Virus record (IMG/VR): IMGVR_UViG_3300025765_000001
Reading direction: 5' to 3' (one strand)
Source of the DNA: a virus
Lineage: Duplodnaviria; Heunggongvirae; Uroviricota; Caudoviricetes
DNA length: 64,000 bases
A model generated the notes under the pieces. The model was not told the DNA's origin. It saw only the letters and a list, made by a program, of their open reading frames with translations, and made no database searches. The position numbers and the translations under genes are program-made. Each line of letters starts with the position of its first letter. Within the stretch, counting starts at the first letter, position 1. Below, in pieces: positions 18,014 through 55,328 of this stretch.

Positions 18014-18405
18014 GCGACAAAATGGGCGGGTTCTCGCCTACTGCGTCAAGAAACAGTACCAAGTAGTAAAATCCTACGAGGAAGTCGGCTCTGGCATGTG
18101 CGACACCCGACCAAAACTTCATCAAATCTTCAAGTTGGTTGAAGAGAAGCAGGTGGATAAGGTCATCGTAGAACACAAGGACCGGCTGACCCGGTTCAAC
18201 TTCAACTTTCTGGCAGCGTTCTTCGCCAGTCATGGTGTTGAGGTTGAATGGACAGAGGAAGTGCTTGGGAACAAGCGGTACGAGGACGAGTTAGTGGAAG
18301 ACATGCTCACGCTCATGTCCTCGTTCTCAAACAAAATCTACGGCAAACGATCCGCAGAGAACCGCAAGAAGAAAAAGTTAGAGAAGTTGGCGGCAAAGGA
18401 GCAAG
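17964..18405 (+). CDS. tnpA: IS607 TnpA serine-recombinase catalytic domain (second part of split tnpA; 3' end approximate)
   Basis: 'CISSHEQKQKGDLERQ...VDKVIVEHKDRLTRFNFNFL...SNKIYGKRS' matches the IS607 TnpA catalytic core. The ORF runs on in frame to 19088, overlapping tnpB, so the true stop is uncertain. Confidence 0.5.
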
Positions 18406-39999: not shown

Positions 40000-40071
40000 G
40001 GCTCCATCGTCTAGCGGCTAGGACATAACCCTCTCAAGGTTAAGACCGGAGTTCGAGTCTCCGTGGAGTCA
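40000..40071 (+). tRNA. tRNA-Glu (CTC), second copy
   Basis: Acceptor GGCTCCA / TGGAGTC. Anticodon arm TAACC CTCTCAA GGTTA. T-arm CGGAG TTCGAGT CTCCG. Confidence 0.6.
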
Positions 40072-40253
40072 CTTATGAACGCTAGAATGGTTTAGCCAGA
40101 CCCGCTTAGGGATTTGGATTGGAACCTGTAGTGCGTTTCTTTTCTACGCATGGCACATTATGATGTGTCGTCGTAAGAAAGAGAAATACATGTACTATGA
40201 GGCCGAGAAAGCATACAATCCGAAATTAGAGTTTCGGTGGTGGATTAAGTAGC

Positions 40254-40565
40254 ATGTGGGAAAACTGCCACGACGCATTGGAGTATGAAGAGGCCGTGAA
40301 GCGGGCTGAAGAGTACAAACGAGTCAGCAAGCCGCTTCAAGCTGTGTGCAATGTCTGTGGCACCCCTTCTCAGTTCTTCATTCAAGGGAACATCACTGTC
40401 GAAGAAGAGGAAGGCGAAGTAAAATTGGTTGCGATCTGCAAAAAGTGCCTTCTAGAGATCGGCTTAGAGCAATGCTACAAATTCTTGATGGACCATGTTG
40501 GAACTTCACAGCGAACGAAATACCTCCAAGGTTTCAAAGCCCAGCGACTATTGATGGGGGCTTAG
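40254..40565 (+). CDS. hypothetical zinc-ribbon-like protein
   Basis: CxxC...CxxC pattern. 3' end runs into tRNA-Ala. Confidence 0.35.
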   Translation: MWENCHDALEYEEAVKRAEEYKRVSKPLQAVCNVCGTPSQFFIQGNITVEEEEGEVKLVAICKKCLLEIGLEQCYKFLMDHVGTSQRTKYLQGFKAQRLLMGA

Positions 40566-40627
40566 CTCAGATGGGAGAGCGATAGCTTTGCAAGCTATAG
40601 GTCATGGGTTCGAGTCCCATAGCCTCC
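40555..40627 (+). tRNA. tRNA-Ala (TGC)
   Basis: Same G3:U70 acceptor as the GGC isoacceptor. Anticodon arm ATAGC TTTGCAA GCTAT. Confidence 0.7.
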
Positions 40628-40688
40628 ACTCGTCTCATACATAGGAAAAGGTCATGAAATGAAGCGTGTAGATAACGATTGATGTTTG

Positions 40689-40759
40689 GCCCCGTCCAGC
40701 GGACTTCTGGCACCGAGTTTCCTAAACTTGGTTAATTGGTTCGACTCCAATACGGGGTA
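40689..40759 (+). tRNA. tRNA-Arg (CCT)
   Basis: Acceptor GCCCCGT / ACGGGGT. Anticodon arm CGAGT TTCCTAA ACTTG. T-arm ATTGG TTCGACT CCAAT. D-arm atypical. Confidence 0.45.
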
Positions 40760-40762
40760 CTT

Positions 40763-40860
40763 GCGGGATGGTGCAGGATACGGTTCCTTCGCCAAATGGT
40801 ATGGCACTAGCTGTCAAAGCTGGAGTTGTGGGTTCAATTCCCACAGGTTCAAATCCCGTA
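40763..40860 (+). ncRNA. ~95-nt tRNA-like element with two consecutive T-arm-like hairpins
   Basis: GTGGG TTCAATT CCCAC followed by ACAGG TTCAAAT CCCGT. Ends GCGGGAT...ATCCCGT could pair. Confidence 0.25.
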
Positions 40861-40892
40861 TCTGTTTATTTCTCCCGCTACTTACATAAGGA

Positions 40893-41540
40893 ATGATTTA
40901 TCATGCAATCGGGACGCATCTTGGTGATTGTTGGTCCAGCCTGAACTACGTGCTATTCCAAGACGATCCCTGCATCTCGATGTATTTCCTATCACACTCC
41001 AGGGGGTGGAAGAAACGGAATGCTGGAAAGCACTTCAGGAAGATGATCCCGTTGTTCAAAGACGGTGATAGAATCAAAGTTACCGAAGAGCTACCAACTG
41101 TACGGCTAACTTGGAGGGGCATTTACAATGTCCCAGGTTATCACGAGACCGTTTATCCCTGGGCGGGCGAGGGCAGCAAGAAGGTTGCCTATCAGTTCAA
41201 TGGTCGCAACAACGGCTTTGCTAAGAACTGCAAGCCCTGGGAAGAAGCGTGGATTTTGGAAGTGCTATGTGAGCTTGGCTATGAGCCGGTTCAGATGGGC
41301 TTGCCAAAATCGCTGAAGCAGAGCATCAAAGACTTGTCTCGGTGCTGTGCCTTCGTTGGAGTAGAGAGTGGTTTTTCGGTAGTATCACAGTCGATAGTCG
41401 GTTTGCCGATAACGATCATTCGCAACCAGATCGAGGAGGAATCTATTCGGCACTCACAGCGAGGCGACGGGCGGATAGTTAAAGACGCTGCTGAGTATAT
41501 AGCTCTGTTAAAGAGCGGTCAGATTGCCGGTATAGGATAG
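40893..41540 (+). CDS. hypothetical protein, possibly GT9-like glycosyltransferase fold (weak)
   Basis: 'VGVESGFSVVSQSIVGLPI' loosely resembles the heptosyltransferase donor-binding motif. Confidence 0.3.
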   Translation: MIYHAIGTHLGDCWSSLNYVLFQDDPCISMYFLSHSRGWKKRNAGKHFRKMIPLFKDGDRIKVTEELPTVRLTWRGIYNVPGYHETVYPWAGEGSKKVAYQFNGRNNGFAKNCKPWEEAWILEVLCELGYEPVQMGLPKSLKQSIKDLSRCCAFVGVESGFSVVSQSIVGLPITIIRNQIEEESIRHSQRGDGRIVKDAAEYIALLKSGQIAGIG

Positions 41541-41593
41541 TGGTAGTCCGTCTCACTCGTAATGAGAAAGCCTGTGTTCGATTCATAGTACCG
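41523..41593 (+). tRNA. tRNA-Thr (CGT)
   Basis: Acceptor GCCGGTA / TACCGGC. Anticodon arm TCTCA CTCGTAA TGAGA. T-arm CTGTG TTCGATT CATAG. Confidence 0.65.
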
Positions 41594-41605
41594 GCTCTTG
41601 CTCAA

Positions 41606-41722
41606 GTGCAGATCGTTGCCGTAATGAGAAGTAGGTATCGAATCCCCAAGTCGCAAGTCAGCCGAGCAACTGGCGTAAGCGATGCAAGGTAGGTCTAGCG
41701 TGAGTTCGAGTCTCACCGATCT
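41606..41722 (+). ncRNA. ~116-nt tRNA-like RNA closed by a 10-bp terminal helix (CAGATCG.../...CGATCTG) with a canonical T-arm
   Basis: GTGCAGATCG at 41603 pairs with CGATCTGCAC at 41714. T-arm GTGAG TTCGAGT CTCAC lies directly before the 3' strand. Interior has several small hairpins, no canonical anticodon arm. Confidence 0.3.
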
Positions 41723-41727
41723 GCACA

Positions 41728-41799
41728 ACTGCCGATGTAGCATAAAGGTAATGCACGATCTTGGTAAGATCGGGAGTGTGGGTTCAAGTCCCACCATCG
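41728..41799 (+). tRNA. tRNA-Thr (GGT)
   Basis: Acceptor GCCGATG / CATCGGC. Anticodon arm CGATC TTGGTAA GATCG. T-arm GTGGG TTCAAGT CCCAC. Confidence 0.65.
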
Positions 41800-41821
41800 G
41801 CTCTTTGACGTTTCAACCAAA

Positions 41822-41892
41822 CATGCTACCGTCTTCTAGTGGTAAGAAACCAGCGTGGTAAGCTGGGAACCTGAGTTTGATTCTCAGCGGTA
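41822..41892 (+). tRNA. tRNA with GGT anticodon, Glu/Gln-type D-arm and T-loop TTTGATT
   Basis: Acceptor GCTACCG / CGGTAGC. Anticodon arm CCAGC GTGGTAA GCTGG (G32). Confidence 0.4.
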
Positions 41893-42039
41893 GCTCTCAT
41901 TTCTCTCTATCCTAATCCTAGAATCACTGGTAGAATCTATATACCGTCTAGCGGTATATAGATCATCCGACCGCTACTGCTACTGTATTAAGGAGATCAA
42001 CGAGCAGGATAGGTACGTGTTGCTTGAGCTTGTTGATGG

Positions 42040-42630
42040 TCACTGGCTGGTGAAGTCCTGCTGAAAGAATAGTTCTTTGAACTCGTCCGATGCGGGGATG
42101 TCGTTTTCGGCCAGCCACTTCATAATGTTTTGGTGTCTTAGCAACGCCAGGGCAGGGTCACTCATTTTCTGATGGTGAGGCTCGAACATTACAGCTTTGA
42201 AATACCTCATCGAGCCTTTCTTAATCATGTGTGGGAACAAGTAGTATTCACTGCCTTCGATGTCGGCTCGCAAGATGTTGTTGTTGCTCGGCAAAAGCGT
42301 CTCTTTCACCCACCTGTCGAAATCGATGCACTCTACCTTAGTGACTCGGTTAAGATTTCCATTGCAAGGTATTTTGTCTACTATAGTTGAACCAGCACCC
42401 TTATAGCCGCTTACTTCCATCTCCTTTACCTCCTCTCTGATCCAAACTGCTTTTCTGAGATAGCGAAAATTAGGAAACTCCTTTTCTAGTTTTTCTAGAG
42501 CTTCGGCTAATTTCTCATGTGGGGCGGGACATGGATCGAACCCATAGAACACAATCTCCGGGTATTCTATAAGAGGCTCACGAATATACTTTGGGCGATT
42601 TACTCCTAATTCTATCACAACTGTTTTCAT
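42040..42630 (-). CDS. FkbM-family methyltransferase
   Basis: 'ILRADIEGSEYYLF' matches the FkbM 'LLKIDIEGAEyevL' block. Confidence 0.5.
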   Translation of the reverse strand: MKTVVIELGVNRPKYIREPLIEYPEIVFYGFDPCPAPHEKLAEALEKLEKEFPNFRYLRKAVWIREEVKEMEVSGYKGAGSTIVDKIPCNGNLNRVTKVECIDFDRWVKETLLPSNNNILRADIEGSEYYLFPHMIKKGSMRYFKAVMFEPHHQKMSDPALALLRHQNIMKWLAENDIPASDEFKELFFQQDFTSQ

Positions 42631-42653
42631 TGGTTTGCCTATATAGATAGAGT

Positions 42654-43040
42654 ATGGATTTCAAGAAGTTTATCGAACAGAACGCAATGCCGATGCAGCA
42701 GTTTTCTCAGCCCGCCAAGCCGTGGAAGGCCAAGAAAGCTGATGTTCTACGTTTCTGGCAGGAGATTCGCCCCGGTTTGCCCATTGAAGTTCAGCCTGTC
42801 GAGAAAGGTCATAGCGGAACTAGATTCAACGAAGATGGCATTCGTATAACTGGCAGCCCAGTTTTTATTAGTAGCGTGCTTAGTCGCCTCAAGGATTTGC
42901 TCAGTTATAACTCTACTCCTGGTAAGAAACTAGATGTGGAATATAGAGAAATACAAAGTGCTGGTAGCACAGGTCGGAAAGTATATGTCTTTTATGTTCA
43001 CGTTTTGCAAGATGAACTTGATATGCCAAAGGTTCCTTGA
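42654..43040 (+). CDS. hypothetical protein
   Basis: 128-aa ORF. Confidence 0.4.
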   Translation: MDFKKFIEQNAMPMQQFSQPAKPWKAKKADVLRFWQEIRPGLPIEVQPVEKGHSGTRFNEDGIRITGSPVFISSVLSRLKDLLSYNSTPGKKLDVEYREIQSAGSTGRKVYVFYVHVLQDELDMPKVP

Positions 43041-43066
43041 TTTGATTTTGCTTTTCTGTTAGGGCC

Positions 43067-43447
43067 ATGAGAGTAGTACAAGACCAAGAAGATGAAGGCG
43101 GCAACAAACCGCAAGAGAAGCCTCAGAAAAAAGACGAGCGTGTAGAACGTCCGCCCAAGAGTCAAAAAACCAATAGACTCTGCGGACTTGTAGAGGGCTG
43201 GGTACTAGATACGTTAGGGCGTTCGCCTAACTTTTCTCATGTTCGAGCCTACCACCTTTGGGATAATAGATTCCGAGTCAACATCTGGACGAATGAGAAC
43301 CGTATCTCTGATAGTTTTTTCATCCACGCTGTACTCGATGGGATAACGCACTCGTCACCAGCCTTGGAGAAGAAATATGCAGACCCAGCAGCAACAACAC
43401 CTGCCGGACCAGAACTTGTTGAAGCAGCAAGTTCAAATGTAGAGTGA
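43067..43447 (+). CDS. hypothetical protein
   Basis: 126-aa ORF. Confidence 0.4.
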   Translation: MRVVQDQEDEGGNKPQEKPQKKDERVERPPKSQKTNRLCGLVEGWVLDTLGRSPNFSHVRAYHLWDNRFRVNIWTNENRISDSFFIHAVLDGITHSSPALEKKYADPAATTPAGPELVEAASSNVE

Positions 43448-43755
43448 TTGCTGCTTATTTTGGGCAGAGGAGGAACATGAACTATTACCAAGCGAGAGAG
43501 ATGTACAAGGATGGGAAGCCGAGCGGCAAATGGCACTACATTTGTATGAACGACGGAAAAATCTGGCCTGTCGGATACTGTAGTCCCTGGAAGACCTGTC
43601 TTGACTGCGACGGCAAAAGTGCATGGTATCATCTCTATGACGACACTCCTGATTGTGCTACATGTAATAACAAGGGAATAGTAGAAGATGCAAATCCTTG
43701 CCCTGGTCACGATACACCAGACGAGGCTGTAACCACTATAGAGAGTATCTTCTAG
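43444..43755 (+). CDS. hypothetical Cys-rich protein
   Basis: 10 Cys in 103 aa. Confidence 0.4.
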   Translation: MIAAYFGQRRNMNYYQAREMYKDGKPSGKWHYICMNDGKIWPVGYCSPWKTCLDCDGKSAWYHLYDDTPDCATCNNKGIVEDANPCPGHDTPDEAVTTIESIF

Positions 43756-44363
43756 ATAACGCAAAGTACGATAACCACCTGCAAGTCAAGAAACTGCCGC
43801 TCGTTCCAACATATGTCGTTGACATAGGTGCCCACATCGGAACATTCTCTGTATTGGTTAAACGCACCTTCCCAGGCAGCCAAACCATATGTTGCGAACG
43901 CTGCCCAGAAAACATTCCAATGCTATCGAAGAATATCCGTGGCTTTGGCAAGGTGGTTCAGGCCGCAATCACCTATGAGGTCGATCTAACACTTTTGAAC
44001 TCGGTATTCCCAGATTGTGTGTCTATAGGAGGGAGCATTGTCTGTCATCCTGATTTGCTTGCCACAATTGATAAAGTGCGGTATTGGGCCGATACGAGGC
44101 CGTTAGCTCGCAAGACTTTGGAAAATGTGATCTCCGAGAATAAACTAGAACGGATCGATCTGTTGAAACTAGATTGCGAGGACAGCGAATTGAGTATTCT
44201 CCGAAACACCACATCACTAGATAAAATTCGATTCATTGTCGGCGAGTGGCACGGAAGGAATCAGTTCATGGATATAGTTTCAACTAGGTTTTCAACCTGG
44301 AACTTCAGAATTTTCAGAGATGGCGAATTGGGATTATTCTGGTTAGAAAATAAGGTAATATGA
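43698..44363 (+). CDS. FkbM-family methyltransferase (true start probably downstream of 43698)
   Basis: 'VVDIGAHIGTFS' (FkbM DIGANxG motif) and 'IDLLKLDCEDSELSIL'. Confidence 0.55.
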   Translation: MPWSRYTRRGCNHYREYLLDNAKYDNHLQVKKLPLVPTYVVDIGAHIGTFSVLVKRTFPGSQTICCERCPENIPMLSKNIRGFGKVVQAAITYEVDLTLLNSVFPDCVSIGGSIVCHPDLLATIDKVRYWADTRPLARKTLENVISENKLERIDLLKLDCEDSELSILRNTTSLDKIRFIVGEWHGRNQFMDIVSTRFSTWNFRIFRDGELGLFWLENKVI

Positions 44364-44782
44364 TGTCAACAATCTTTCTTACTCGTCCTCCGTTCATCGT
44401 GGATGCAGGGCCGTGCCCTGGCGTTTACTCGGAGGCTTACCAATTTCACCTACAAATGAAAGGAATTGATCCTATGGCTATTTTGAAAGGCTTTCCGCTG
44501 TCCAACACCATTTCTCCGGATACGAGGATAAATATAGAAGAAGAATCAATGTGGCCCATTGACGATACCGATGCCAAGGTTTGCAAAGAGATAGTTGCCG
44601 ATGACCCACAAGCTGGTCCAGGGCAGGACGCCGAGTGGGATACTGGCAATTACACGATGGTTCATGACGAAAGGGATTACGGAGATGGCCGCAACATCAG
44701 TTTCAGGAAGAGGTCTGGGGATGTCCTACCCGCCAACGGAGAGGAAATCCAAGCAGAAACCGCAGAATCACATAACGTGTAA
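44360..44782 (+). CDS. hypothetical protein
   Basis: 140-aa ORF. Confidence 0.4.
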   Translation: MMSTIFLTRPPFIVDAGPCPGVYSEAYQFHLQMKGIDPMAILKGFPLSNTISPDTRINIEEESMWPIDDTDAKVCKEIVADDPQAGPGQDAEWDTGNYTMVHDERDYGDGRNISFRKRSGDVLPANGEEIQAETAESHNV

Positions 44783-44912
44783 TTGTGGTCCGAATTGCGA
44801 CCCTCCACCGACTCCCACGCCTTCTCCTAGCAAATGCTATTCTAGAGTGAAAGTTGGCGGGGTCTCTAGAATCAAAGTATCTAATAGTAGGAGTCTCAAG
44901 ATTTGTACATAA

Positions 44913-44993
44913 GGGGCCTTGGTCTAACGGTAAGGCGTCGTGTTAAAGTCACAGTGCCGCACGAAGATGTCGGTTCGATTCCGGCAGGTTCCA
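44913..44993 (+). ncRNA. 81-nt tRNA-like RNA (type II length) with anticodon region expanded to a 5-bp stem enclosing 17 nt
   Basis: Acceptor GGGGCCT / AGGTTCC (two G-U). T-arm GTCGG TTCGATT CCGGC. TCGTG...17 nt...CACGA in place of a 7-nt anticodon loop. Confidence 0.3.
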
Positions 44994-45070
44994 TATTGAT
45001 TGAAATGTCTTTTCTGGTTACACTCTAGCATCGTATAGTACATTTTGCCACTTACCCAAAGGAATGCAAG

Positions 45071-47179
45071 ATGTCAGTACCAGAGATGTTGGAAAGACGG
45101 GTGTGGCCCATCGAGAAAGCCCTGCAACGCATCCTTGTTGGGCAGAGGAACGTCATCCGCCGTGTGACTATGGCGTTATTCGCTGTCGGACAGCGGGACT
45201 TCTATCCAGATGGTACACGATTTTTAGGAACAGGCCACGTTCTATGCGAAGGCGGTGTAGGAACAGGAAAATGTCTTGGTAAAGGCACCCCCGTCTTGAT
45301 GTTCGACGGAACTATAATTCCCGTTGAATCCGTTAAGACTGGAGACCTGTTGATGGGACCAGATTCTCTGCCCAGGAAGGTTATTGCTCTCGGACACGGT
45401 TTTGGAGAGCTATATCGGGTGATACCAAAAAAGGGCGATTCGTATGTTGTCAATGACGAGCATATCCTGTCATTTAAGATGACTAGTCGTGGTCGAAATA
45501 GGCAGGGCAATTTTCCACGTTCTGGCGACAATGTTCCTGGCATGATTTATAACATGTCAGTCAAAGAATACTTGGGAAGGTCAGAGCGATTCAAGAGTCA
45601 TGCCAAGGGATATAGAGTTGGCATCGAGTTTGATGAGCGAATTGTGCCACTGGACCCGTATTTTTTTGGCGTGTGGTTGGGAGATGGGATCAGTCGCACC
45701 GCACAGGTTTGCAATACGGATAACGAAATTATTGCGTACATTCGTAAGATGGCAAACAAGTACAGGCTGCGGTTCAACACTTACACAGCAAGCGGGAAAG
45801 CTCCGATTCACTCGTTGTGGGGGAAAAAATTCCATCCTAATGCGATATTGAGTGCTTTACGTGAAATGAACGTATTGCAAAACAAACATGTTCCACAAAT
45901 ATACAAAGCAAATTCACGACGAGTGAGATTGCAAATTTTGGCCGGACTGATGGACACAGATGGCAGTCTGTCGGCTGGTTGCTATGACTTCGTAAACAAG
46001 TCAAAACAACTTGCCGATGATGTGGTTTATTTGGCGAGGTCTCTAGGATTCGCCGCTTATGTCAAACCATGCACCAAGGTTTGCAAAAACAACGGTAAAA
46101 AGGGTCGATATTACCGAGTATCGATTTCTGGAAATTTATCGGAAGTTCCGGTTCGCATTGCCAAGAAAAAGGCTTCTCTTCGTCGGCAGAAGAAGAATGT
46201 GTTGGTGACTGGAATCAAAGTAGAACCAGAGGGCTATGGAGAATACTTTGGTTTCGAGATTGAGGGACCAGACAGGCTGTTTCTCCTGGGAGATTTCACG
46301 GTCACACACAATACCGTTCTCTGTAAAGCACTTTCTAGGTTGCTGGCTGGCAACTCCAAACGAGTATCGGGAATGCCCGACGCACTTGCCAGCGATATTA
46401 CTGGTTGCGAGATCATCTTGCTGACCGGCGATACCAAGACGGTCCAGGGGCCGCTATTCTGCAACGTTATGCTGGCTGACGAGATCAACCGTTTCCCGCC
46501 CAAAGCCCAAAATGCGTTCATCGAAGCACTGGCTGAAGGCTGTGTCACCATCGCAAATGAAACTATTCGTTTGAAGCAGCCTTTCTTCTGCCTCGCTACA
46601 CAGAACCCGACTGAGCAAAAAGGCACGAGTCGTCTACAAGAGGCTCTGTCAGACCGGTTTATGTTCAAACTCGTCATGCGTGAGACTACAGAGCAGGAGA
46701 AGATTGATATCGCAAAGCGGACACACCACTTCGATGTCACGAACCTGAATCCTGTAATTACGACAGACGAAGTATACGAAGCTAGAGAGTATTTCTTCAA
46801 CAATACTCACGTCAGCGATGAGGTACGTCGCTACGCTGCTCGCTTGCTTCGTGCAATCAACCATCCAGCGGAATACAAACTTCTTGAGAAGGAACGGGCC
46901 TTGCTTGCGGGCGATAACATCTTCAAGCAAAAGCCAGCGGTCAACGACCGTGCCATGCTGCATATGGAAGGTGCGGCGATGATGGAGGCGGTTATGAGTG
47001 GGAGGGACTACGTGATCCCCGCCGACGTTGCTGCTGTTGCGGCAGATGCCCTCCGTGCCCGTCTTCTCCTGTCTGAGTCTAGTTTGCACCTTCTGGCGGA
47101 ACTACACCCAGGCAAAACCGAAACCGAGTTGGTGGACTATTTCATAGACGAAACTCTGTCTAGGGTGCGACACACTTGA
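45071..47179 (+). CDS. MoxR-family AAA+ ATPase containing a LAGLIDADG intein inserted in the Walker A P-loop
   Basis: Extein 'HVLCEGGVGTGK|...|TVLCKALSRLLAG' reconstitutes 'GVGTGKT'. Downstream MoxR motifs 'LLADEINRFPPKAQNAFIEALAEG...ATQNPTEQKGTSRLQEALSDRF'. Confidence 0.8.
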   Translation: MSVPEMLERRVWPIEKALQRILVGQRNVIRRVTMALFAVGQRDFYPDGTRFLGTGHVLCEGGVGTGKCLGKGTPVLMFDGTIIPVESVKTGDLLMGPDSLPRKVIALGHGFGELYRVIPKKGDSYVVNDEHILSFKMTSRGRNRQGNFPRSGDNVPGMIYNMSVKEYLGRSERFKSHAKGYRVGIEFDERIVPLDPYFFGVWLGDGISRTAQVCNTDNEIIAYIRKMANKYRLRFNTYTASGKAPIHSLWGKKFHPNAILSALREMNVLQNKHVPQIYKANSRRVRLQILAGLMDTDGSLSAGCYDFVNKSKQLADDVVYLARSLGFAAYVKPCTKVCKNNGKKGRYYRVSISGNLSEVPVRIAKKKASLRRQKKNVLVTGIKVEPEGYGEYFGFEIEGPDRLFLLGDFTVTHNTVLCKALSRLLAGNSKRVSGMPDALASDITGCEIILLTGDTKTVQGPLFCNVMLADEINRFPPKAQNAFIEALAEGCVTIANETIRLKQPFFCLATQNPTEQKGTSRLQEALSDRFMFKLVMRETTEQEKIDIAKRTHHFDVTNLNPVITTDEVYEAREYFFNNTHVSDEVRRYAARLLRAINHPAEYKLLEKERALLAGDNIFKQKPAVNDRAMLHMEGAAMMEAVMSGRDYVIPADVAAVAADALRARLLLSESSLHLLAELHPGKTETELVDYFIDETLSRVRHT
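45272..46312 (+). other. intein (347 aa) with LAGLIDADG homing-endonuclease domain
   Basis: Begins 'CLGKGTPVLMFDG' (block A) directly after GTGK. Contains 'FFGVWLGDGIS' and 'ILAGLMDTDGS'. Ends 'FTVTHN' followed by extein Thr (+1). Confidence 0.75.
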
Positions 47180-48021
47180 AAAAGAACTTTCGATCTATCG
47201 AAATCACTGTTAAGAAACTGCTCAATACTTTTCCAACTGGCGGGCATGTAAGTTCACTCAAGAACTCCATTATTGACGTTGATGTGGTCCGAGAGTATCA
47301 GCCCGGTGACAAGCGGTTGGATAGTCGAGCCAGCCTCCGTACCAACAGCATTATGTCGAGGGTATTCACCCCCGACAAGTCAATGAACGTGATGTTGGTT
47401 TTGGATGTTAGTTGCTCTCAGGCATCTAAGTTCGAGTCGGCTATTCTTGTGTGCCTGTATCTGTGCTATCTGGCAAATCAGTCCAACGACCCGGTTGGTC
47501 TGACAACTTTTGGCGATAGAGTGTCACTTTCTATCCAGCCGGATGAGGACATTCGGAATGTTACCTCTGTACTAGAACAAATTTACTATAGAGGCAATCT
47601 ATCACCTGGGAGTAACCTGGACGACGCTCTTCGGAGGATTGGCAATCAAGAACCCTCGAATACTCTCACTGTGCTGGTAAGTGATTTCTGTTTCCCGTTT
47701 AGCGATCGTATAGTTGGTCTACTACGTTGTATATCATGCGGCATAAATAACGTGATGATAGCTCCAATTCTTGCAAACTCTCAGGAATGGTCTTTCGATG
47801 TATTGCCATTTCGGGTAGACTTTAAGGATTCGGAAAGCAACGATGCAACTAACTGGAATTTTGGATCGGAGAAGGCACACAAAGGTCATCTGGCGGCTTT
47901 TGAGAAGTGGCAAACCGATCTAAAGGCCGTCCTGCATCAAGGAAGGGTCGAGCCTATCTTGATGCAGGTAGATAAGCCTGATTTTATGATGCCCTTGGTC
48001 AAATTTTTCCTGAGAGCGTAA
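47176..48021 (+). CDS. DUF58-family protein (MoxR partner)
   Basis: 'VVREYQPGDKRLD' matches the DUF58 RxYxPGD signature. Start overlaps the MoxR stop. Confidence 0.7.
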   Translation: MKKNFRSIEITVKKLLNTFPTGGHVSSLKNSIIDVDVVREYQPGDKRLDSRASLRTNSIMSRVFTPDKSMNVMLVLDVSCSQASKFESAILVCLYLCYLANQSNDPVGLTTFGDRVSLSIQPDEDIRNVTSVLEQIYYRGNLSPGSNLDDALRRIGNQEPSNTLTVLVSDFCFPFSDRIVGLLRCISCGINNVMIAPILANSQEWSFDVLPFRVDFKDSESNDATNWNFGSEKAHKGHLAAFEKWQTDLKAVLHQGRVEPILMQVDKPDFMMPLVKFFLRA

Positions 48022-48022
48022 C

Positions 48023-49504
48023 ATGGACCTGATTTCTGCTTTCACTCTGTTCTTCGGTATCTTCGCTTGCATAGATCGGCAGCCGGTCTATCAGATCGAC
48101 CATTTTTACTACTACAACGCTGAACACAAGCAGATCGGTTTGCCGTTGCAAGGTGGGGTGTTGGCTCCCAACGGTCCCGGTTTACAAGACTTCATTGACG
48201 CTGGCAAACACGGCGAGGCGACAGTTAAGAAGCTGGAGAAAAGCCAGTTTGAGGGTGTTGTTTTCGTCTGCGACGACAACCGGAAAATGCTTGAGTTGCT
48301 TAGAAAGTTGAGCGACAAGAAGATAGAAGCGTACCCTATAGTCAAGTTCTCTAACATGCTCTGTGTGCCCAGCGACACGGTTTTGGTGAAAACGAAGAAG
48401 CATGTTACCGAGGCCACGTTGAAGCAACGCCTCAAGCACAACGGCAAACTAGTTGTCGATAAAATCGACAAAGCGGCACCGTACACATACCAAATCAAGA
48501 TCAGCAAGATGTCGTTGCCTCCCAACATTCTTGTCACGGCTAATATGCTCGCAGAGGATACGGCGTGGTTTGAACATGCACGAGCGATGTTCCGCCCCAT
48601 ATATCAGCCTGTTGTGGCGTGGGTCGTCGTAGAACGACCAGCGAGTTCGACCGTTGGCGAGGAACGCCTTCTGAAGCTTGTAATCGAAGTACACAAGCCT
48701 TCGATCAAGATTCTGAAGGACACCATTCCGAGCCTTGGGCATAATAAATGGATTCCTCAGCCTCAGACGCTCGATGTTTGGTGTGAATTCGGGAAGCCAT
48801 CGCCACACAAGGTAGAAGCCACGCAAGACGGCTACATGATCACGATCACGCAGCCGTTTCGCTTTTACTCAATTGTCCCGATCATTATTCCGCCTGCTGG
48901 CTTTGTCTACGAAGACGATGATGGGGAGAAATATATGGCTAACATCCAGGGCTGCAAATATCGAAACTCTAGTCTGCTTGCTGGGACAAATATCGATGAC
49001 ATACAGCCAAGACCCCCCATTGGATCACTGCCTTTGTTAGACGCTCCTGAGCCTCTGGTTCCCGAAACCAGCCTGTATGGTTATCGACCGCTGTTGTTAT
49101 ACGGAATGGCGATGGTCGGGGTTGGGTCGCTGGTGTTGGTGCTTTTGGTGTTGGCAAAGGCCAATCGTTTTCGCATCAACACGCTGTTGCGTTGGGCCGG
49201 AAGTCGAGAGCGTGCCCGTTACTGGAATGAGCTAGAATCGACTGCGTTCCACCTGAATGCTGGCGACAACTGGCGTCTGGCCTACCAACAGGTTACGGAT
49301 GCACTCTCGAATGTGCTGAGCGAGTTTTATGATGTCAAACGGCCATTGTCGGCTTTGGAACACAAAGACACGCTTCTTCAGTCCATCGTAGGCGAGCTAG
49401 AACTGTTCTATAAGTCCGACTATGAGCCGAACGAGGCTGCTGTGGCGGCTCTGGTTGCCAACCTGAACACCTTTGTCAAGGAACGGGTCAAGTTCAATGT
49501 TTGA
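48023..49504 (+). CDS. membrane-anchored protein of the Bat-like operon
   Basis: 493 aa, single C-terminal-proximal TM helix. Immediately follows the DUF58 gene. Confidence 0.4.
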   Translation: MDLISAFTLFFGIFACIDRQPVYQIDHFYYYNAEHKQIGLPLQGGVLAPNGPGLQDFIDAGKHGEATVKKLEKSQFEGVVFVCDDNRKMLELLRKLSDKKIEAYPIVKFSNMLCVPSDTVLVKTKKHVTEATLKQRLKHNGKLVVDKIDKAAPYTYQIKISKMSLPPNILVTANMLAEDTAWFEHARAMFRPIYQPVVAWVVVERPASSTVGEERLLKLVIEVHKPSIKILKDTIPSLGHNKWIPQPQTLDVWCEFGKPSPHKVEATQDGYMITITQPFRFYSIVPIIIPPAGFVYEDDDGEKYMANIQGCKYRNSSLLAGTNIDDIQPRPPIGSLPLLDAPEPLVPETSLYGYRPLLLYGMAMVGVGSLVLVLLVLAKANRFRINTLLRWAGSRERARYWNELESTAFHLNAGDNWRLAYQQVTDALSNVLSEFYDVKRPLSALEHKDTLLQSIVGELELFYKSDYEPNEAAVAALVANLNTFVKERVKFNV

Positions 49505-50570
49505 ACACCCATACTTTTTGGCACTCGGTCTGCTAGCGTTAGCATTTTTATTCTACCGCTGCAACCGGTACTTCTTGACCCATGCCTATGTCAAGGCCCT
49601 GAAAACTACGCAGGACGCAATTGGCGGGGGAAGTGGGCGTTTTAGATTTCAGAGTTCGATGCTGGCATTGGGGTGGGTGGTCTTGATTATTGCCGCTTCG
49701 GGTATGTCCTGGGGTTTCACACAACCCGTTAGGAAGCAACAAGTCCACAAATACGTACTGGTAAACGATGGCTCTGGTTCTATGGTGGATGGGAACAAAC
49801 TACAAGGGAGGGGGAAGCAACTAGATACTGTTCACAAAGGAAACCAAGCGTTTCTCAACATGCTCGCCCAGAGAGATGACGGGAGCAAGGATGTGGTGGG
49901 AGCGGTGGTGTTTTCCAATGATGCCTACATTGTCTCTTACTTAGTTGATGATCCCGCCTTTGTTGAAAAAAAGTTGAGCTTCATCGACTATAGGCTGCCT
50001 CCCCTTGCAGGAGGCACGCTGTCGGATAGGTCTTTGTGGTGTGCCGTGGAAATGCTGATGCGTGATGGTAAGAAAGCGTCGGATGAAGACATGCTCGCAA
50101 TGCAGTTGACTATGTACGGTCCAGAGGAGAAATACAAGCGAACGGAGAAGATGGAAGAGCTTGTTAAGAAGTACCAGCCAATTGTAGAAGGCGGCAATAT
50201 CGTTATCTTTACCGATGGGATATTCCAACCCTGGGGCAACGCCCAGATGATGTCCACTTTCAAATTGCTCGATCTGTGTAAGGATTTGCGTATTAAGGTC
50301 TACCTAATTTCGGTCGAGACGATAGACCCGCTGTTGTTCGCAAGCATGAAAGAGACCGGAGGGTTTGCTATACTCTTGCGTGGCTTTGATGCCAAGGTGT
50401 TTGAGCAGACCTACACAGATATAGTGAGAAGCAACGCTCAAGAGGAAATCGTTGTAGACCAGCCCATCAGGAAACCGTTGTCTCCGATCTTGGCCCCAAT
50501 AGCTTTTGCTCTTATTGCTGCGGGTTTGCTGTTGAGGCTGACATTTAATCGAAACTACACAGAGGTCTAA
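49497..50570 (+). CDS. vWA-domain membrane protein (BatA/BatB-like)
   Basis: N-terminal TM helices. MIDAS 'LVNDGSGSM'. Start overlaps the upstream stop. Confidence 0.6.
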   Translation: MFEHPYFLALGLLALAFLFYRCNRYFLTHAYVKALKTTQDAIGGGSGRFRFQSSMLALGWVVLIIAASGMSWGFTQPVRKQQVHKYVLVNDGSGSMVDGNKLQGRGKQLDTVHKGNQAFLNMLAQRDDGSKDVVGAVVFSNDAYIVSYLVDDPAFVEKKLSFIDYRLPPLAGGTLSDRSLWCAVEMLMRDGKKASDEDMLAMQLTMYGPEEKYKRTEKMEELVKKYQPIVEGGNIVIFTDGIFQPWGNAQMMSTFKLLDLCKDLRIKVYLISVETIDPLLFASMKETGGFAILLRGFDAKVFEQTYTDIVRSNAQEEIVVDQPIRKPLSPILAPIAFALIAAGLLLRLTFNRNYTEV

Positions 50571-50571
50571 C

Positions 50572-51381
50572 ATGAAAAAGCTACTACTCCTCGTCCTGGT
50601 TACACTCGCTGGCGGAAGCTATATGATGTTCTATAGCAAGGCCCAGGATTACGAACGCCAGCAGAAGGAAACAGAGTGCCAAGCACAAATCAAGAAAGTC
50701 GATGCCGTAAATGCGTTCATTAAGAGCATTAACGAGGCGAAGACAGTCGCTCAATTAGAAAGCTTGGAAGCAGAGTTGGCTCATTGGCTTGATCCAGACG
50801 GAGATGCCCACAAAAAAGTTAGGTCCACGATTTTGCTCAAAAAGGCCAGGGTATCTTTTGATGAGGCCGAGGAGCTTCTACAACAAGCAATCAGCTTGCA
50901 GCAGGCATTGAATTTACCACCGTTGCCTCCACCGTTGCCTCCACCACAGTCGGAGCTAGCGGACCCGCATAATCACTATAATTCCGCACCGCCGTCCAGA
51001 CCGGAACTGTCGATTCATCCAGCGGCTCAGGAGGCTTTAATCAAAGCCGACAAGCTGTACGTGGACAGCAAAAAATATCTGGATAAGCTCAGCGACATTC
51101 CAGGTGATACGAGCTATAACTTCTCGCTTAATTACCTCAAGGGAGAGGTATATTATCGTCACACGATGTTTCGTTCGTCGTCCGAAACTGTTCAGGACTT
51201 GTTCACACAGACTGCCACGTACTACAAGAAAGCTCTGTCGTACAAGCCCGGAGACGTTGATACCACTGTCAACATCGAACTGCTTCTTAAACAGCAGCAG
51301 GGCATGATGGGCGAGGCAGGACAATCTCAGCCTCAACGGATGTTGAACCAAATGGGCATGGGCAAGTCCAAAGGCAACTGA
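50572..51381 (+). CDS. TPR-like protein with Pro-rich linker (BatC-like)
   Basis: N-terminal TM/signal segment, PPLPPPLPPP linker, TPR-like helical repeats at the C-terminus. Confidence 0.45.
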   Translation: MKKLLLLVLVTLAGGSYMMFYSKAQDYERQQKETECQAQIKKVDAVNAFIKSINEAKTVAQLESLEAELAHWLDPDGDAHKKVRSTILLKKARVSFDEAEELLQQAISLQQALNLPPLPPPLPPPQSELADPHNHYNSAPPSRPELSIHPAAQEALIKADKLYVDSKKYLDKLSDIPGDTSYNFSLNYLKGEVYYRHTMFRSSSETVQDLFTQTATYYKKALSYKPGDVDTTVNIELLLKQQQGMMGEAGQSQPQRMLNQMGMGKSKGN

Positions 51382-51382
51382 T

Positions 51383-52423
51383 ATGTTCGAGAACCCCTTA
51401 TTTCTCTGGGCACTCCTGTTTGTGCCCCTGGTAGTAATACTGCTGGTGTATTCGTGGCGTTGCTTCAAGAAATTCGAGCAATCGCCACGAATTGCCTCTT
51501 TTCTATACGCAAGTAGGCGTCCTGGCTGGGCAGCCCGTAGGGTTATTGCTGTCGTTTGGTTGGTTTCTCTGTCTCTGTTGATTCTTGGTCTTGCTCAGCC
51601 GTATGTAGATGTCCCGACTTCAGAGAAAAAGCACAAGAACGTCAGGATATTCTTCGTCGTGGATGTCTCTAGATCGATGGTCTATGCCGAGGATATCAAG
51701 CCCAATAGAATGGTTGCGGCACGGTCTGAGTTGGTAGAACTCTACAAGCAATTGGATGGGCATTATGAGTGCAGCATCATTCCTTTTGCTGGTTCGCCGA
51801 ACGTCTATTACTGCCCCCTGACGTACAGTAAGCGAGTTATTCTGCCGCTCCTTGAAGACCTGGGGCCGGACACGGCACCAGAATATGGCACTGATTTGGT
51901 TAAGGCTGTGTCGGCTCTTCAAAACATTCTCAAGCAAGAAAAGCTAGATCAAGACGGTATCAACCTCATCATTCTCGTCAGCGACGGCGGCAAGGAGGAG
52001 GCAGAGGCGACGAACAGGGTAAGACTACATGCGTTGGTCCAAAGCATGGCCTCGAAGAACTGTAAGTTCTTCACGGTTGGTGTTGGTGGTCGTGATCCCT
52101 GTGAGCTAATCAAACGGTACGGCGATGGCTCGTTCGATGATTTTTTGAAGGAAGACGGCAAGATACAGGTCTCTCATTTGGATGAGGAGATTTTGCAGGC
52201 AGTGGCAGATCAAGGCAACGGCAAATATTGTCATTTTCATCAGAAAGATCAGATGCGGGGCTTTGTAAACGAAGCGATACAGCGAAACCGCATAGAAGAG
52301 GGAGCCATTGTCGTCACAAAAAGGGTCTACCTGGAGTATTATTTGTACGCCCTCTGTGCTATACTTCTGTGGTTCGGTTTCATAGCCAACAAAACATATG
52401 CATCAGAGACCAGAAGTAAGTGA
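51383..52423 (+). CDS. vWA-domain membrane protein (BatA-like)
   Basis: Two N-terminal TM helices. MIDAS 'FFVVDVSRSM'. C-terminal TM. Confidence 0.65.
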   Translation: MFENPLFLWALLFVPLVVILLVYSWRCFKKFEQSPRIASFLYASRRPGWAARRVIAVVWLVSLSLLILGLAQPYVDVPTSEKKHKNVRIFFVVDVSRSMVYAEDIKPNRMVAARSELVELYKQLDGHYECSIIPFAGSPNVYYCPLTYSKRVILPLLEDLGPDTAPEYGTDLVKAVSALQNILKQEKLDQDGINLIILVSDGGKEEAEATNRVRLHALVQSMASKNCKFFTVGVGGRDPCELIKRYGDGSFDDFLKEDGKIQVSHLDEEILQAVADQGNGKYCHFHQKDQMRGFVNEAIQRNRIEEGAIVVTKRVYLEYYLYALCAILLWFGFIANKTYASETRSK

Positions 52424-52585
52424 TGAGGAAATTCAATTCCTCGTCTACAGGTATGTGATGGGCGAACTTACCGACGTGCAGTTTAATTACTATGTCCAGG
52501 TCTGGCAATTGGATCGGGAATACGTTAATCTTCTGCTCAGCGATGCTAGACGAGCCAAGGAGATTTTCGACCATGTTCCTTTTGG

Positions 52586-53020
52586 GTGCCTTTGGTTTTT
52601 GATGGCTGTGGTCATTGTGTTGATAATCATAATGTTGAATTTTCTACTATAATGAGTGACCATTACGACGAAGCTGAGCTTTTTGTCTGCGATTGCAGCG
52701 ATGTAGCTCACCAACTTGTTTTCCAACTCTGGGACTTTAGCAAGAACGGCGAGGAGCTTTGGAGACCGGCAAAGGAAAACGTAAATTTGACAGTTTGCGT
52801 TTACCTGAACCAGTATCACGGCTTCTGGGCACGTCTCTGGATGGCGGTCAAGTACGTGTTTGACTACCGAAGTAAGTACGGCGAGTTTGACGTGGTGAAC
52901 ATCCGGGCCGAGGATGTGCCAAGAATGAAGGCAATTCTTGACAAGTTCGCTTCTAGGGTCCAGTATTATCAGGGAGAGTTAGACGCCCTGGATTCCAAGC
53001 GGAACTTGGTCCAAGAGTAA
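52586..53020 (+). CDS. hypothetical protein
   Basis: 144-aa ORF. Confidence 0.4.
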   Translation: MPLVFDGCGHCVDNHNVEFSTIMSDHYDEAELFVCDCSDVAHQLVFQLWDFSKNGEELWRPAKENVNLTVCVYLNQYHGFWARLWMAVKYVFDYRSKYGEFDVVNIRAEDVPRMKAILDKFASRVQYYQGELDALDSKRNLVQE

Positions 53021-53619
53021 CGCCGTTCCTCAGCGAGACAACGAACAGCGAACCTCAACACGCCTACCAATACGGCATCCCAACGGTCGATTTCTACTTG
53101 GGTCATAATATCTCTGGCGGGCAAACCGTGGCCCTCGTAGTACCGCCTGCACCTGCTGATCCAGGGCTGTTCAGCGATCTCGCAGAATAGAAAATCCATT
53201 ACGCTCCGGTAGGAGTCCATCTTCTTCCGGGTAGAGACGTACTTCAATGCCAGAAGCGTGTCGGTGTCTTCCAGGGCCGTTTCTGCCAAGGGAAAGATCG
53301 TGGTCAAATACTCGCTCTCGCAGCGGATTGACAGTTCAGGACGGATTGAGCAGGCCAGTTGCATGAGTACCTCCTTGCTGTGGGCTAAAAGCAAGTATCG
53401 TGCCAAGCGAGGAAACACCCAGGGGCCGGTGCCGGAAGAGGCTTGTCGTAACTGGAGTTACGGAAAACGGAACTAGGTTGGCCTTCCACAAGATTGTTTG
53501 TGCGGTCAACAAAATCGATTGTGGAGTCGAACGATACCGATCATGGCGTCGGGCGAATGTCGTCAAAAGGCGGCGACCGTCGCCGTAAGGTGACGCCAAA
53601 AGGCGTCGGAGGGGTAATG

Positions 53620-53919
53620 GAGTACCGTATGTTTGCACGGAGGGTGCTGGATCGGCCTCTCCGGGTTGCCATCCTCGATCACCGAGGGCTGCGTTTTGTC
53701 GCCAAAGTCCTCAACACTAGCGAAGGCGGGTTGGGGCTTCTTTGCGATCAGGCTTTTGAGATTGGCTCGGTGCTGCAAGTCATTACTGGGTCGCTTTGGT
53801 GTGACACAAAAGTTCGGCATTGCACTAGAACAGGAAATGAATACACTGTTGGTGTGGAGTACACAGACGCTCACAAGGGCAAAGCGATCACCAACAGTCT
53901 GAATAGAGGTCATTTATGA
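53620..53919 (+). CDS. PilZ-domain protein (putative c-di-GMP receptor)
   Basis: 'RRVLDRPL' (RxxxR) and 'NTSEGGLGL' ((D/N)xSxGG). Start taken at the internal Met of the 53494 ORF. Confidence 0.45.
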   Translation, partial: EYRMFARRVLDRPLRVAILDHRGLRFVAKVLNTSEGGLGLLCDQAFEIGSVLQVITGSLWCDTKVRHCTRTGNEYTVGVEYTDAHKGKAITNSLNRGHL

Positions 53920-54380
53920 GTGTACTAGAAACGATTCAGTTCCGAATCACCGCAGCGATGAAGTCGGGCAACGACACAGAGAAGAATCTTTTTCGAGTCG
54001 TTCTCGGCGAGGCACAGATGGCCGCTGTCCGCAAGGGAAAGGACAAGCCGGACGACGAAACCATGATCGCTACCATTCGCAAGGTTATCAACGGTCTGAA
54101 TGAGAACATTGTTCTGGTCAAAGGGTCGGCCACAGGCGGCTCAACCGTGCAGCAGGAAACCGAGCTAGCTCTGCTGGCACCGTTCCTGCCCGCTACCTGG
54201 GACCAGCCGCAGATCGAGGCATTCTTCCTCAATGGCGATAACCTGGTTTTTGAACAAATTCGTGACGCCAAGAGCGAGGGAGCGGCGATGGGCCTTGCTA
54301 TGAAGACGCTCAAAGGCGAATCGGCACCGGTCAACGCCGACGACGTGAAGGCTGTTGTCACCAAGATTCGTACATCCTGA
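53916..54380 (+). CDS. GatB/YqeY-domain protein
   Basis: C-terminal 'AAMGLAMKTLKGESAPVNADDVKAVVTKIR' and overall helical pattern match the YqeY family. Confidence 0.55.
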   Translation: MSVLETIQFRITAAMKSGNDTEKNLFRVVLGEAQMAAVRKGKDKPDDETMIATIRKVINGLNENIVLVKGSATGGSTVQQETELALLAPFLPATWDQPQIEAFFLNGDNLVFEQIRDAKSEGAAMGLAMKTLKGESAPVNADDVKAVVTKIRTS

Positions 54381-54437
54381 AAACATAAGTTGGCAGAAAA
54401 AGTCACGCTTTCAGCGTGGCCTTTTCTATTTTAGGGC

Positions 54438-54701
54438 ATGAAGCCAGTTCTATCTCATACACGCCATATTGCGAAGGCCATTTCTTACCGTATTCTCGGC
54501 ACCATCGCAACTATATTGATCGGCTGGGTAGTAACCGACAGTATAGAAGTCGGGACTTCTCTTGGAATCCTCGACATTACTGTTAAGACTTTCCTCTATT
54601 ACCTTCATGAACGGGTCTGGTATAGAATCCCGTTTGGAGTAAATAGAGATGATAATATGCATCCAACCAGTGGAACAGTGGACGGGAGCGACCGATCTTG
54701 A
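54438..54701 (+). CDS. small membrane protein (DUF2061-like)
   Basis: 'AKAISYRILGT...WYR' pattern, two TM helices. Confidence 0.4.
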   Translation: MKPVLSHTRHIAKAISYRILGTIATILIGWVVTDSIEVGTSLGILDITVKTFLYYLHERVWYRIPFGVNRDDNMHPTSGTVDGSDRS

Positions 54702-54864
54702 CAAAGCGACATACCTCGAAATTCTTGATGGTGTGGACCCAGATCAAGAGGCCAATAGCTTCTACTACGGCGAAAACCACTTGCTACTTATTGAGCATTT
54801 CATTAAACTAGGGGCCAAGGTAGTAGAGAACCCGATCAAGACCTACTTTGTATAGGAGAGGGTC

Positions 54865-55326
54865 ATGTCGATCTTCGAGAGGGAATCCAAGAAGGATTTC
54901 GATTTCGAGAAGGACATCCTGGGGCTTCAAATGGTGAGGCCCTATAAGCACGAGGGTCGCTGGGTTTTCGATGACCAAGAAGGACTTCGCCGGGATATCG
55001 CACCCGCTGGTGCTACTGTAGCGACTCTCTCTCCAATTGTGGTCGGGGCCGACCGCTTAATTATGGAGGGAACCAGGAGGAAGGGAATCGAAAATCCAGA
55101 AAGTGGATTTCGTCTCTACTTCTCAGATAAGGCGTTTCCTGATGCCGATGTAGAGTTCCGCTGGGAGCGGGAATGCTATGACGGGCATATCTACAACGTT
55201 TTACCATGCGGAGATAAAATTGCCATTCCCTCCGACCAACAGGCTTGGATTTGTCCTTACCTGATGTTATACTACAAACAACCGCCGAAGATTCTATTTC
55301 TGAAGATCGAGGCTGATGGGAGATAA
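54865..55326 (+). CDS. hypothetical protein
   Basis: 153-aa ORF. Confidence 0.45.
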   Translation: MSIFERESKKDFDFEKDILGLQMVRPYKHEGRWVFDDQEGLRRDIAPAGATVATLSPIVVGADRLIMEGTRRKGIENPESGFRLYFSDKAFPDADVEFRWERECYDGHIYNVLPCGDKIAIPSDQQAWICPYLMLYYKQPPKILFLKIEADGR

Positions 55327-55328
55327 CA

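Follow-up and report, generated by a model that had tools for sequence, protein, structure and literature searches.

The gene at positions 45071 to 47179 of a 64,000-nucleotide stretch of viral DNA (IMG/VR record IMGVR_UViG_3300025765_000001, the whole of which is referred to here as the window) raises the question of what separates the Walker A lysine from the Walker A threonine in its product, a predicted MoxR ATPase, and of how such a protein could become active. The answer suggested by sequence and predicted fold is that the insert is, in all likelihood, a genuine and probably active class 1 homing intein of the PI-SceI type, located at GVGTGK↓T (the arrow marks the insertion point) of a MoxR protein encoded within a MoxR-DUF58-VWA operon of a huge phage.

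Reading frame and boundaries of the insert

Translation of the window indicated an uninterrupted open reading frame (ORF) of 702 amino acids (aa) on the plus strand (45071-47179), with a putative ribosome-binding site, AAGGA, ahead of the MoxR ATG. The insert of 347 aa comprises residues 68-414 of this ORF (nucleotides 45272-46312) and the precursor reads ...EGGVGTGK↓C-(347 aa)-HN↓TVLCK..., the sequences at the junctions being, in order, ...GTGHVLCEGGVGTGK↓CLGKGTPVLMFDG...LFLLGDFTVTHN↓TVLCKALSRLLAG..., with HVLCEGGVGTGK as the flank on the N side and TVLCKALSRLL as the flank on the C side. Both junctions are in frame and joining of the flanks restores the P-loop exactly. No in-frame stop codon was present across the insert, whereas the remaining frames held 14 and 19 stops, and the GC content of the intein (45.3%) was below that of the exteins (52.3%) and of the window (50.1%). 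The features of the gene, all on the plus strand, are as follows.

45071-45271, +, N-extein (aa 1-67), ending in the first part of Walker A, GGVGTGK (45251-45271), and aligning with the N-termini of intein-free orthologues
45272-46312, +, intein of 347 aa, a predicted PI-SceI-like class 1 Hint domain with embedded LAGLIDADG homing endonuclease
45272-45310, +, intein block A, CLGKGTPVLMFDG, with the Cys1 codon at 45272-45274; aligns with PI-SceI residues 1-54
45446-45475, +, intein block B, VVNDEHILSF, holding N61-x-x-H64
45485-45541, +, loop SRGRNRQGNFPRSGDNVPG in the region between Hint strands, holding an insertion of about 11 residues, as seen in the alignment of MoxR inteins
45656-45694, +, first LAGLIDADG motif, PYFFGVWLGDGIS, with the predicted catalytic Asp138 (GVWLGD138G); aligns with PI-SceI AYLLGLWIGDGLS
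45881-45907, +, NKHVP segment with conserved Lys, just upstream of the second LAGLIDADG motif
45929-45973, +, second LAGLIDADG motif, LQILAGLMDTDGSLS, with Asp228 and Asp230 (LAGLMDTD230G); aligns with PI-SceI FLAGLIDSDGYV
46241-46312, +, intein blocks F and G, EYFGFEIEGPDRLFLLGD FTVTHN, with penultimate His346 and terminal Asn347
46313-47179, +, C-extein (aa 415-702) and stop codon, opening with the +1 Thr that completes Walker A (GK↓T)
46466-46492, +, Walker B, VMLADEINR, in the C-extein
46589-46609, +, sensor 1, ATQNP, in the C-extein
46646-46666, +, DRF arginine, in the C-extein, which also holds the AAA lid

The insert as an intein with a LAGLIDADG endonuclease

When the insert alone was compared with Pfam, matches were obtained to Hom_end_hint (E 2.8e-13, spanning intein residues 1-70), LAGLIDADG_3 (1e-07) and Hom_end (1.3e-06), each above its gathering score. 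The best relative of solved structure in a phmmer search of PDB was PI-SceI, the yeast VMA1 intein (3.1e-14), in an alignment that takes in the N-terminal Hint strands, both LAGLIDADG motifs and the NKHVP Lys, and that pairs LAGLMDTDGSLS with LAGLIDSDGYVT at the second motif. Conservation was scored on an alignment of the window intein with 64 homologous inteins. Invariant positions in this alignment were C1, the N-terminal splicing nucleophile, N61 and H64 of block B (NxxH), D228, D230 and G231 of the second LAGLIDADG motif, and F337, L339, D341, F342, T343, V344, H346 and N347 of blocks F and G, and D138 of the first LAGLIDADG motif was conserved in at least 90% of the sequences. Both LAGLIDADG catalytic aspartates are thus kept in the window intein, and the +1 residue that follows it is Thr.

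An AlphaFold2 model of the intein, made from the alignment of homologous inteins, had a mean predicted local distance difference test score (pLDDT) of 95 and a predicted template modelling score (pTM) of 0.92. The top Foldseek matches of this predicted model in PDB were chains of PI-SceI, matched over the full length (E 2.5e-25, template modelling score 0.79-0.82 relative to the query), and further matches were noted to the TliVMA intein, to Prp8 inteins (Hint part) and to I-DmoI (LAGLIDADG part, approximately 180 columns). By every feature of sequence and predicted fold, the insert is a class 1 intein with a putatively intact LAGLIDADG endonuclease.

Identity of the host protein

Joining of the exteins in silico gave a 355-aa protein with the P-loop GGVGTGKTVLCK. 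The score of the AAA_3 (MoxR) Pfam family was 117.4 bits for the precursor and rose to 131.8 bits after removal of the insert, at which point the match covered positions 1-131 of the 131 in the profile, and AAA_lid_2 was also present in the protein spliced in silico. The spliced extein matched the structure of a Cytophaga MoxR (2R44) at 3.6e-41 without a gap at the junction, where eggvgtgktvlckalsrll is aligned with EGVPGLAKTLSVNTLAKTM. All AAA+ motifs, i.e., Walker A, Walker B, sensor 1, the DRF arginine and the lid, are kept in the exteins. The host protein is predicted from these comparisons to be a MoxR-family (AAA_3) AAA+ ATPase.

The intein parts the phosphate-binding Lys from the Mg-coordinating Thr by 347 residues, so that on geometric grounds the precursor would be unable to bind nucleotide, and it is reasonable to suppose that no P-loop forms before splicing. 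The ATPase very probably needs protein splicing in order to mature.

Empty sites and distribution among MoxR orthologues

A database search with the spliced extein returned approximately 61 clusters at 54% identity or more, followed by a sharp drop to cellular MoxRs at 33-39%, and a search with the precursor added six more intein-bearing MoxR clusters from public metagenome data. The intein was present in about 7 of 68 MoxR orthologue clusters. Of the clusters found with the spliced extein, 57 are full-length and intein-free, and a contiguous GxxxxGK[TS] was found in all 57 of these orthologues, ten of which contain the exact in-silico junction of the window protein, EGGVGTGKTVLC. In the uncultured phage genome LR756511.1, for example, the orthologue is 70% identical to the window extein and has an uninterrupted EGGTGTGKTVLCK. 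At the DNA level, the empty site was seen in LR756511.1, where it reads CACGTTCTGTGTGAGGGCGGCACAGGAACGGGCAAG↓ACCGTTCTTTGCAAACTTCTCTCTCGC, and in five IMG/VR contigs; one truncated locus was also intein-free, and the IMG/VR locus L011, which encodes the same protein as P0003, was intein-bearing. Candidate homing target DNA can be read from such empty alleles, e.g., GGNACNGGNAAR↓ACNGTNCTNTGYAAR.

The window extein is 83% identical to its closest intein-free relative, the extein of the intein-bearing P0003 is 91-93% identical to intein-free alleles, and the nearest relatives of every intein-bearing extein are intein-free. Identities among the intein-bearing MoxR alleles were 53-64% for the intein and 61-74% for the extein. 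Full inteins of 335-340 aa were found in P0002, P0003, P0004 and the partial sequence P0007, compared with 347 aa in the window (the full-length MoxR inteins measuring 347, 337, 336 and 335 aa). Decayed inteins, which have lost the endonuclease and retained the splicing blocks, were represented by P0005, a 261-aa intein with degradation of both LAGLIDADG motifs and a deletion of approximately 50 residues, and by P0006, a 142-aa mini-intein without an endonuclease. This distribution is the expected picture for a homing element that would invade, lose its endonuclease, shrink and vanish.

The same intein family at P-loops of other ATPases

A homologous intein was present at GK↓T/S in 117 of the best 120 database matches to the precursor, with T or S as the +1 residue in all 117. 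Those outside the MoxR group are 47-56% identical to the window intein, the 117 homologues open with CL.(K/R)GTPV and close with GDFTVTHN, and the ending FTVTHN occurs in at least 110 of them. Their hosts include superfamily 2 (SF2) and superfamily 1 (SF1) helicases, ClpB-like AAA_2, AAA, AAA_22 and ABC ATPases, PhoH, IstB-like proteins, DnaB and CobS-like proteins, and in the phage collection they are helicases of Klebsiella, Vibrio, Pseudomonas, Escherichia and Jersey-like Salmonella phages. For gp34 of Salmonella phage Ent1, the existing annotation already describes the copy as an intein that carries a LAGLIDADG endonuclease. Little is shared between the DNA of the MoxR and helicase sites beyond GGN NNN GGN AAR↓ACN, and recognition of such a short conserved core could plausibly account for spread between unrelated genes. 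The distribution shows one intein family widely exploiting the universal GK↓T of P-loop NTPases. No second copy of the intein was found elsewhere in the window by tblastn, and there is thus no sign of intragenomic spread there.

Some unusual members of the family were also noted. A protein of Azospirillum sp. Sh1 in NCBI nr (P0072) is a CobS-like AAA+ ATPase with an intein of this family at GSGK↓T; after in-silico splicing it matches TIGR01650 at 8e-41, and its NCBI name is just "Hint domain-containing homing endonuclease", by which the function of the host is masked. In P0008, named a replicative DNA helicase by JGI, two apparent inteins of the family were seen, one at Walker A (GAPGTGK↓C...VHN↓S) and the other at a K↓S outside Walker A (...IKLRDGK↓C...VHN↓S). 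In P0009, an intein at KPG↓C...VVHN↓SGK is followed directly by a second Cys start, ending ...THN↓T, which looks like a case of two adjacent inteins in one P-loop.

With these results the preliminary description of the locus, made from the sequence alone, can be judged. The coordinates that it gave for the insert, 45272-46312, agree exactly with the ORF translation. Its identification of a LAGLIDADG intein is supported by the Pfam families (Hom_end_hint, LAGLIDADG_3 and Hom_end, all above gathering scores in the intein family search of the insert), the splicing residues, the predicted PI-SceI fold and the intein-free orthologues, and the site that it proposed, exactly between the Lys and Thr of Walker A (GTGK↓T), by the junction sequence and the empty-site orthologues. 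Its assignment of the host to MoxR is borne out by the AAA_3 and 2R44 matches, and alignment of the extein with intein-free MoxRs, gapless with 2R44 and colinear with the 57 orthologues, gave no support to the alternative of a native insertion domain. P-loop inteins, which it described as known for replication ATPases, are not limited to these, as the same family occupies K↓T/S of ClpB-like, ABC, PhoH, IstB, AAA and CobS-like proteins.

Counterevidence and alternative explanations

Several observations weigh against an active homing intein in a huge-phage MoxR. Among six aligned MoxR inteins, the loop insertion of approximately 11 residues occurs only in the window copy, and it is the only part of the model with low confidence (pLDDT about 63). 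In block B, an Asn takes the place of the Thr that many inteins have; this Asn is invariant in the window's intein family and is found in PI-SceI as well. The seven MoxR inteins form a group of their own in a neighbour-joining tree with bootstrap values of just 43-52%, so that the MoxR lineage was probably, though not demonstrably, invaded just once. Within the window no gene for a phage structural protein was identified, and the phage assignment is contextual. Finally, we infer splicing and cutting from conserved residues, and the endonuclease activity and DNA target proposed here are to be read in the same way.

An insertion domain native to a MoxR subfamily, non-splicing and kept in the mature protein, would accord with the continuous ORF and with the lineage-specific insertions that AAA+ proteins carry. 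Such a domain is nonetheless extremely improbable, as the insert resembles PI-SceI and members of intein and endonuclease families in both sequence and predicted fold, starts with Cys and ends with His-Asn before a Thr, splits an invariant GK↓T in a way that would abolish nucleotide binding, is missing from about 90% of the orthologue clusters, which are gapless at the site, and recurs as the same module at the same dipeptide in unrelated ATPases. It was rejected on the basis of the family matches, catalytic residues, predicted fold and empty sites. An assembly chimera, in which the MoxR gene had been joined to the intein of another gene such as a helicase, could be imagined from the metagenomic source of the sequence and the abundance of homologous inteins in phage helicases. 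The identical 702-aa protein was found on three contigs from JGI, Logan and ENA assemblies, however, related inteins occupy this codon in a further six MoxR clusters, and both junctions are in frame with the P-loop exactly rebuilt. A chimera, which was rejected on account of these three contigs and six clusters, is therefore scarcely conceivable.

Two further explanations accept the insert as an intein and differ on its state or role. It might be a splicing-dead remnant, the MoxR gene being effectively a pseudogene, as the loop insertion unique to the window copy and the decay seen in the relatives P0005 and P0006 could suggest. Against this, all residues that are invariant in the homologues are intact in the window copy, the 2.1-kb reading frame is uninterrupted, no AAA+ motif is missing from the exteins, which are 83% identical to an intact intein-free orthologue, and what the decayed relatives lost is the endonuclease, not the splicing blocks; loss of splicing is thus very unlikely. 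Alternatively, the intein might have been co-opted as a conditional switch by which MoxR/VWA activity is held until a redox or infection-stage signal. Conditional splicing has a precedent in the P-loop inteins of mycobacterial DnaB (PMC6195587, PMC7360933), the nucleophile is Cys1, and cysteines are present in the extein at -8 and +4. These two cysteines also occur in intein-free orthologues (HVLCEGG...TVLCK) and are therefore not intein-linked, for which reason a redox trap linking the intein to them was rejected; moreover, about 90% of the orthologue clusters lack the intein, and it is decaying in others. Co-option as a switch is accordingly very unlikely, and there is only a slim chance that the intein works as a post-translational timer or sensor, e.g., one gated by the redox state of Cys1, that sets when MoxR-DUF58-VWA is switched on in infection. 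Since the intein is absent from most orthologue clusters, a sporadic selfish passenger in the phage MoxR lineage is the better reading.

Proposed mode of action

For the selfish homing intein favoured here, the following sequence of events is proposed. The 702-aa precursor would be made as a single chain whose ATPase lacks an assembled nucleotide-binding site before splicing. The Hint domain would then excise itself by formation of a thioester at Cys1 followed by attack of Thr+1, Asn347, helped by His346, would cyclise and so set the intein free, and an O-to-N shift would leave a peptide bond between the exteins, the product being the 355-aa MoxR with an intact P-loop, GGVGTGKTVLCK. During phage co-infection, the freed intein is predicted to cut the Walker-A-coding DNA of intein-free alleles, and repair of the cut allele would copy the intein in (homing).

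Operon and genome setting

MoxR is the first gene of a MoxR-DUF58-VWA operon, the order of which is kept in seven related loci, intein-bearing and intein-free alike, with the DUF58 gene 3' of MoxR in all of them. The TTG start of the DUF58 gene overlaps the MoxR stop (TTGA). The genes that follow MoxR are these.

47176-48021, +, DUF58 (VWA-like) gene, with Pfam matches to DUF58 (5.2e-21) and VWA_2
48023-52423, +, remainder of the conserved operon (Pfam), in a gene order shared with relatives, comprising the four genes below
downstream of the DUF58 gene, +, ORF of 493 aa with no family match
49473-50570, +, weak-VWA protein of 365 aa (Pfam)
between the weak-VWA and BatA-N/VWA genes, +, ORF of 269 aa
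51383-52423, +, BatA-N/VWA protein of 346 aa (Pfam), the last gene of the block

The window contains 44 tRNA genes, on which ARAGORN and Rfam agree. All are on the plus strand; they span 14273-56266, and most belong to arrays located at 14.3-41.9 kb. One of them (44913-44993, 81 nucleotides, called Phe with anticodon AAA) is located approximately 80 bp upstream of the MoxR start. Another, at 40782-40852 (+), has the anticodon TCA, is labelled SeC by ARAGORN and scores 41.3 bits in Rfam; it could be an opal suppressor, and because the MoxR gene stops at TGA the phage genes are not apparently recoded here. A tRNA-like gene of 97 nucleotides at 56170-56266 (+), for which ARAGORN gives the four-base anticodon TAAC and Rfam a tRNA score of 57.6 bits, may represent a mis-parsed tRNA with an intron or a long variable arm.

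An IS607-like element (16672-19545, +) was noted within the tRNA region, together with a free-standing endonuclease ORF. No group I intron was found at the latter in an Rfam scan of the window, in which only tRNAs reached the gathering score.

16672-17133, +, ORF with a MerR-type helix-turn-helix domain, IS607-like element
17048-18013, +, free-standing LAGLIDADG_2 endonuclease ORF, in a different frame between the helix-turn-helix and recombinase domains
17964-19088, +, Resolvase-domain serine recombinase, IS607-like element
18406-19545, +, TnpB/OrfB_IS605 protein with a Cas12f-like TNB domain, IS607-like element

Cell-like genes of the kind typical of huge phages were seen at 4-1602, 2446-4371, 6712-7530, 31052-32965 and 60382-63168; the set includes an NAD-dependent DNA ligase, a TROVE (Ro60-like) protein, a sigma-70 region 2 protein, an SPFH/Band 7 protein and a class I aminoacyl-tRNA synthetase of 928 aa. 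The same 702-aa protein was found, identical, on a contig of 463,644 bp, and other MoxR orthologues sit on contigs of 586-634 kb. The nearest deposited relative is LR756511.1 (595,163 bp), the kinship being at the protein level only, and no near-identical DNA for positions 40000-60000 was detected by megablast in the phage collection. From the tRNA array, the contig sizes and the relatives, the source genome looks like that of a huge phage.

Comparison with known systems

What is new in this locus is the host protein family, the phage setting and the homing-cycle series; elements of this kind, and insertion at this site, were already well known. With these findings the hosts of inteins come to include huge phages and MoxR, an AAA+ protein of the chaperone type, and the understanding of intein mechanism is left unchanged. 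Related alleles show all stages of the homing cycle at one codon, i.e., empty, full, with decayed endonuclease and mini, and the set of MoxR alleles would constitute a natural system in which to follow, across phage populations, how inteins are acquired and lost. As splicing tools with a +1 Thr, the 142-aa mini-intein and the full-length inteins related to it are candidates. Annotation pipelines split or mislabel such genes, the Azospirillum CobS-like protein being an example.

The closest solved relative in sequence and fold is PI-SceI of Saccharomyces VMA1 (Hom_end_hint and Hom_end; PDB 1VDE, 1LWS). A Hint domain with a LAGLIDADG endonuclease and a similar C-terminal ending, ...FLL..VHN, are common to the two inteins, and the LAGLIDADG Asp and Lys positions line up; identity over the structure is about 20% and the window intein is shorter by approximately 100 residues. 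PI-SceI likewise interrupts the P-loop region of an ATPase, in this case the V-ATPase, where its site lies earlier in the loop by one turn (G↓CGKT, with +1 Cys). The site of the window intein, unlike that of PI-SceI, is GK↓T with +1 Thr.

Inteins of phage helicases (vB_SenS-Ent1 gp34 and the SF2 helicases of Klebsiella and Vibrio phages) belong to the same family as the window intein, to which they are 40-48% identical, and share its start (CL.KGTPV), its end (GDFTVTHN) and the Lys↓Thr site (GSGK↓T, GGGK↓T), but their hosts are SF2 helicases, unrelated to AAA+ MoxR. The K↓T dipeptide has been described as a "classic" P-loop insertion site in connection with mycobacteriophage terminases (Kelley et al., 2016, PMC5050341), P-loop inteins are found in DnaB, MCM, RFC and many further ATPases (Novikova et al., 2016, PMC4760082), and the junction between the Lys and the nucleophilic Thr of Walker A is a common site for bacterial, archaeal and phage inteins (PMC5050341, PMC4760082). 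The classic K↓T inteins (mycobacteriophage TerL1-a, DnaB-b, MCM-a and RFC-a) thus occupy the same Walker A site as the window intein, in hosts that are replication, recombination or packaging ATPases as opposed to the chaperone-type MoxR.

The preliminary description had also suggested that an intein in a MoxR chaperone was new. In agreement with this, no description of a MoxR/COG0714 intein or of an intein in a huge-phage MoxR was found in the full-text literature, a scope outside which the supplementary tables of the 2016 survey fall, and MoxR AAA+ proteins are absent from the top intein hosts in the main-text tables of that survey (PMC4760082); the novelty is reduced by the six more intein-bearing MoxR clusters already in public metagenome data. 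Transfer of inteins between the P-loops of non-homologous proteins was reported for Anaeramoeba in 2023 (PMC10710043). There, as in the window's family, one intein cluster occupies Walker A of unrelated proteins; the Anaeramoeba case is eukaryotic and intragenomic, whereas the family described here is from phages, bacteria and metagenomes.

MoxR-VWA pairs are known from jumbo phages, for which a role in virion assembly has been proposed (PMC7824862). A further claim of the preliminary description, that the activity of the whole operon depends on splicing, was overstated. The interruption affects the ATPase alone, and the dependence of the DUF58 and VWA proteins upon it was assumed from known MoxR-VWA systems. 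Cellular MoxR (2R44) and VWA/DUF58 systems have the same domains, motifs and partner genes as the window MoxR. The phage clade to which the latter belongs is 33-39% identical to cellular MoxRs, and the intein is what distinguishes it from the MoxRs described to date.

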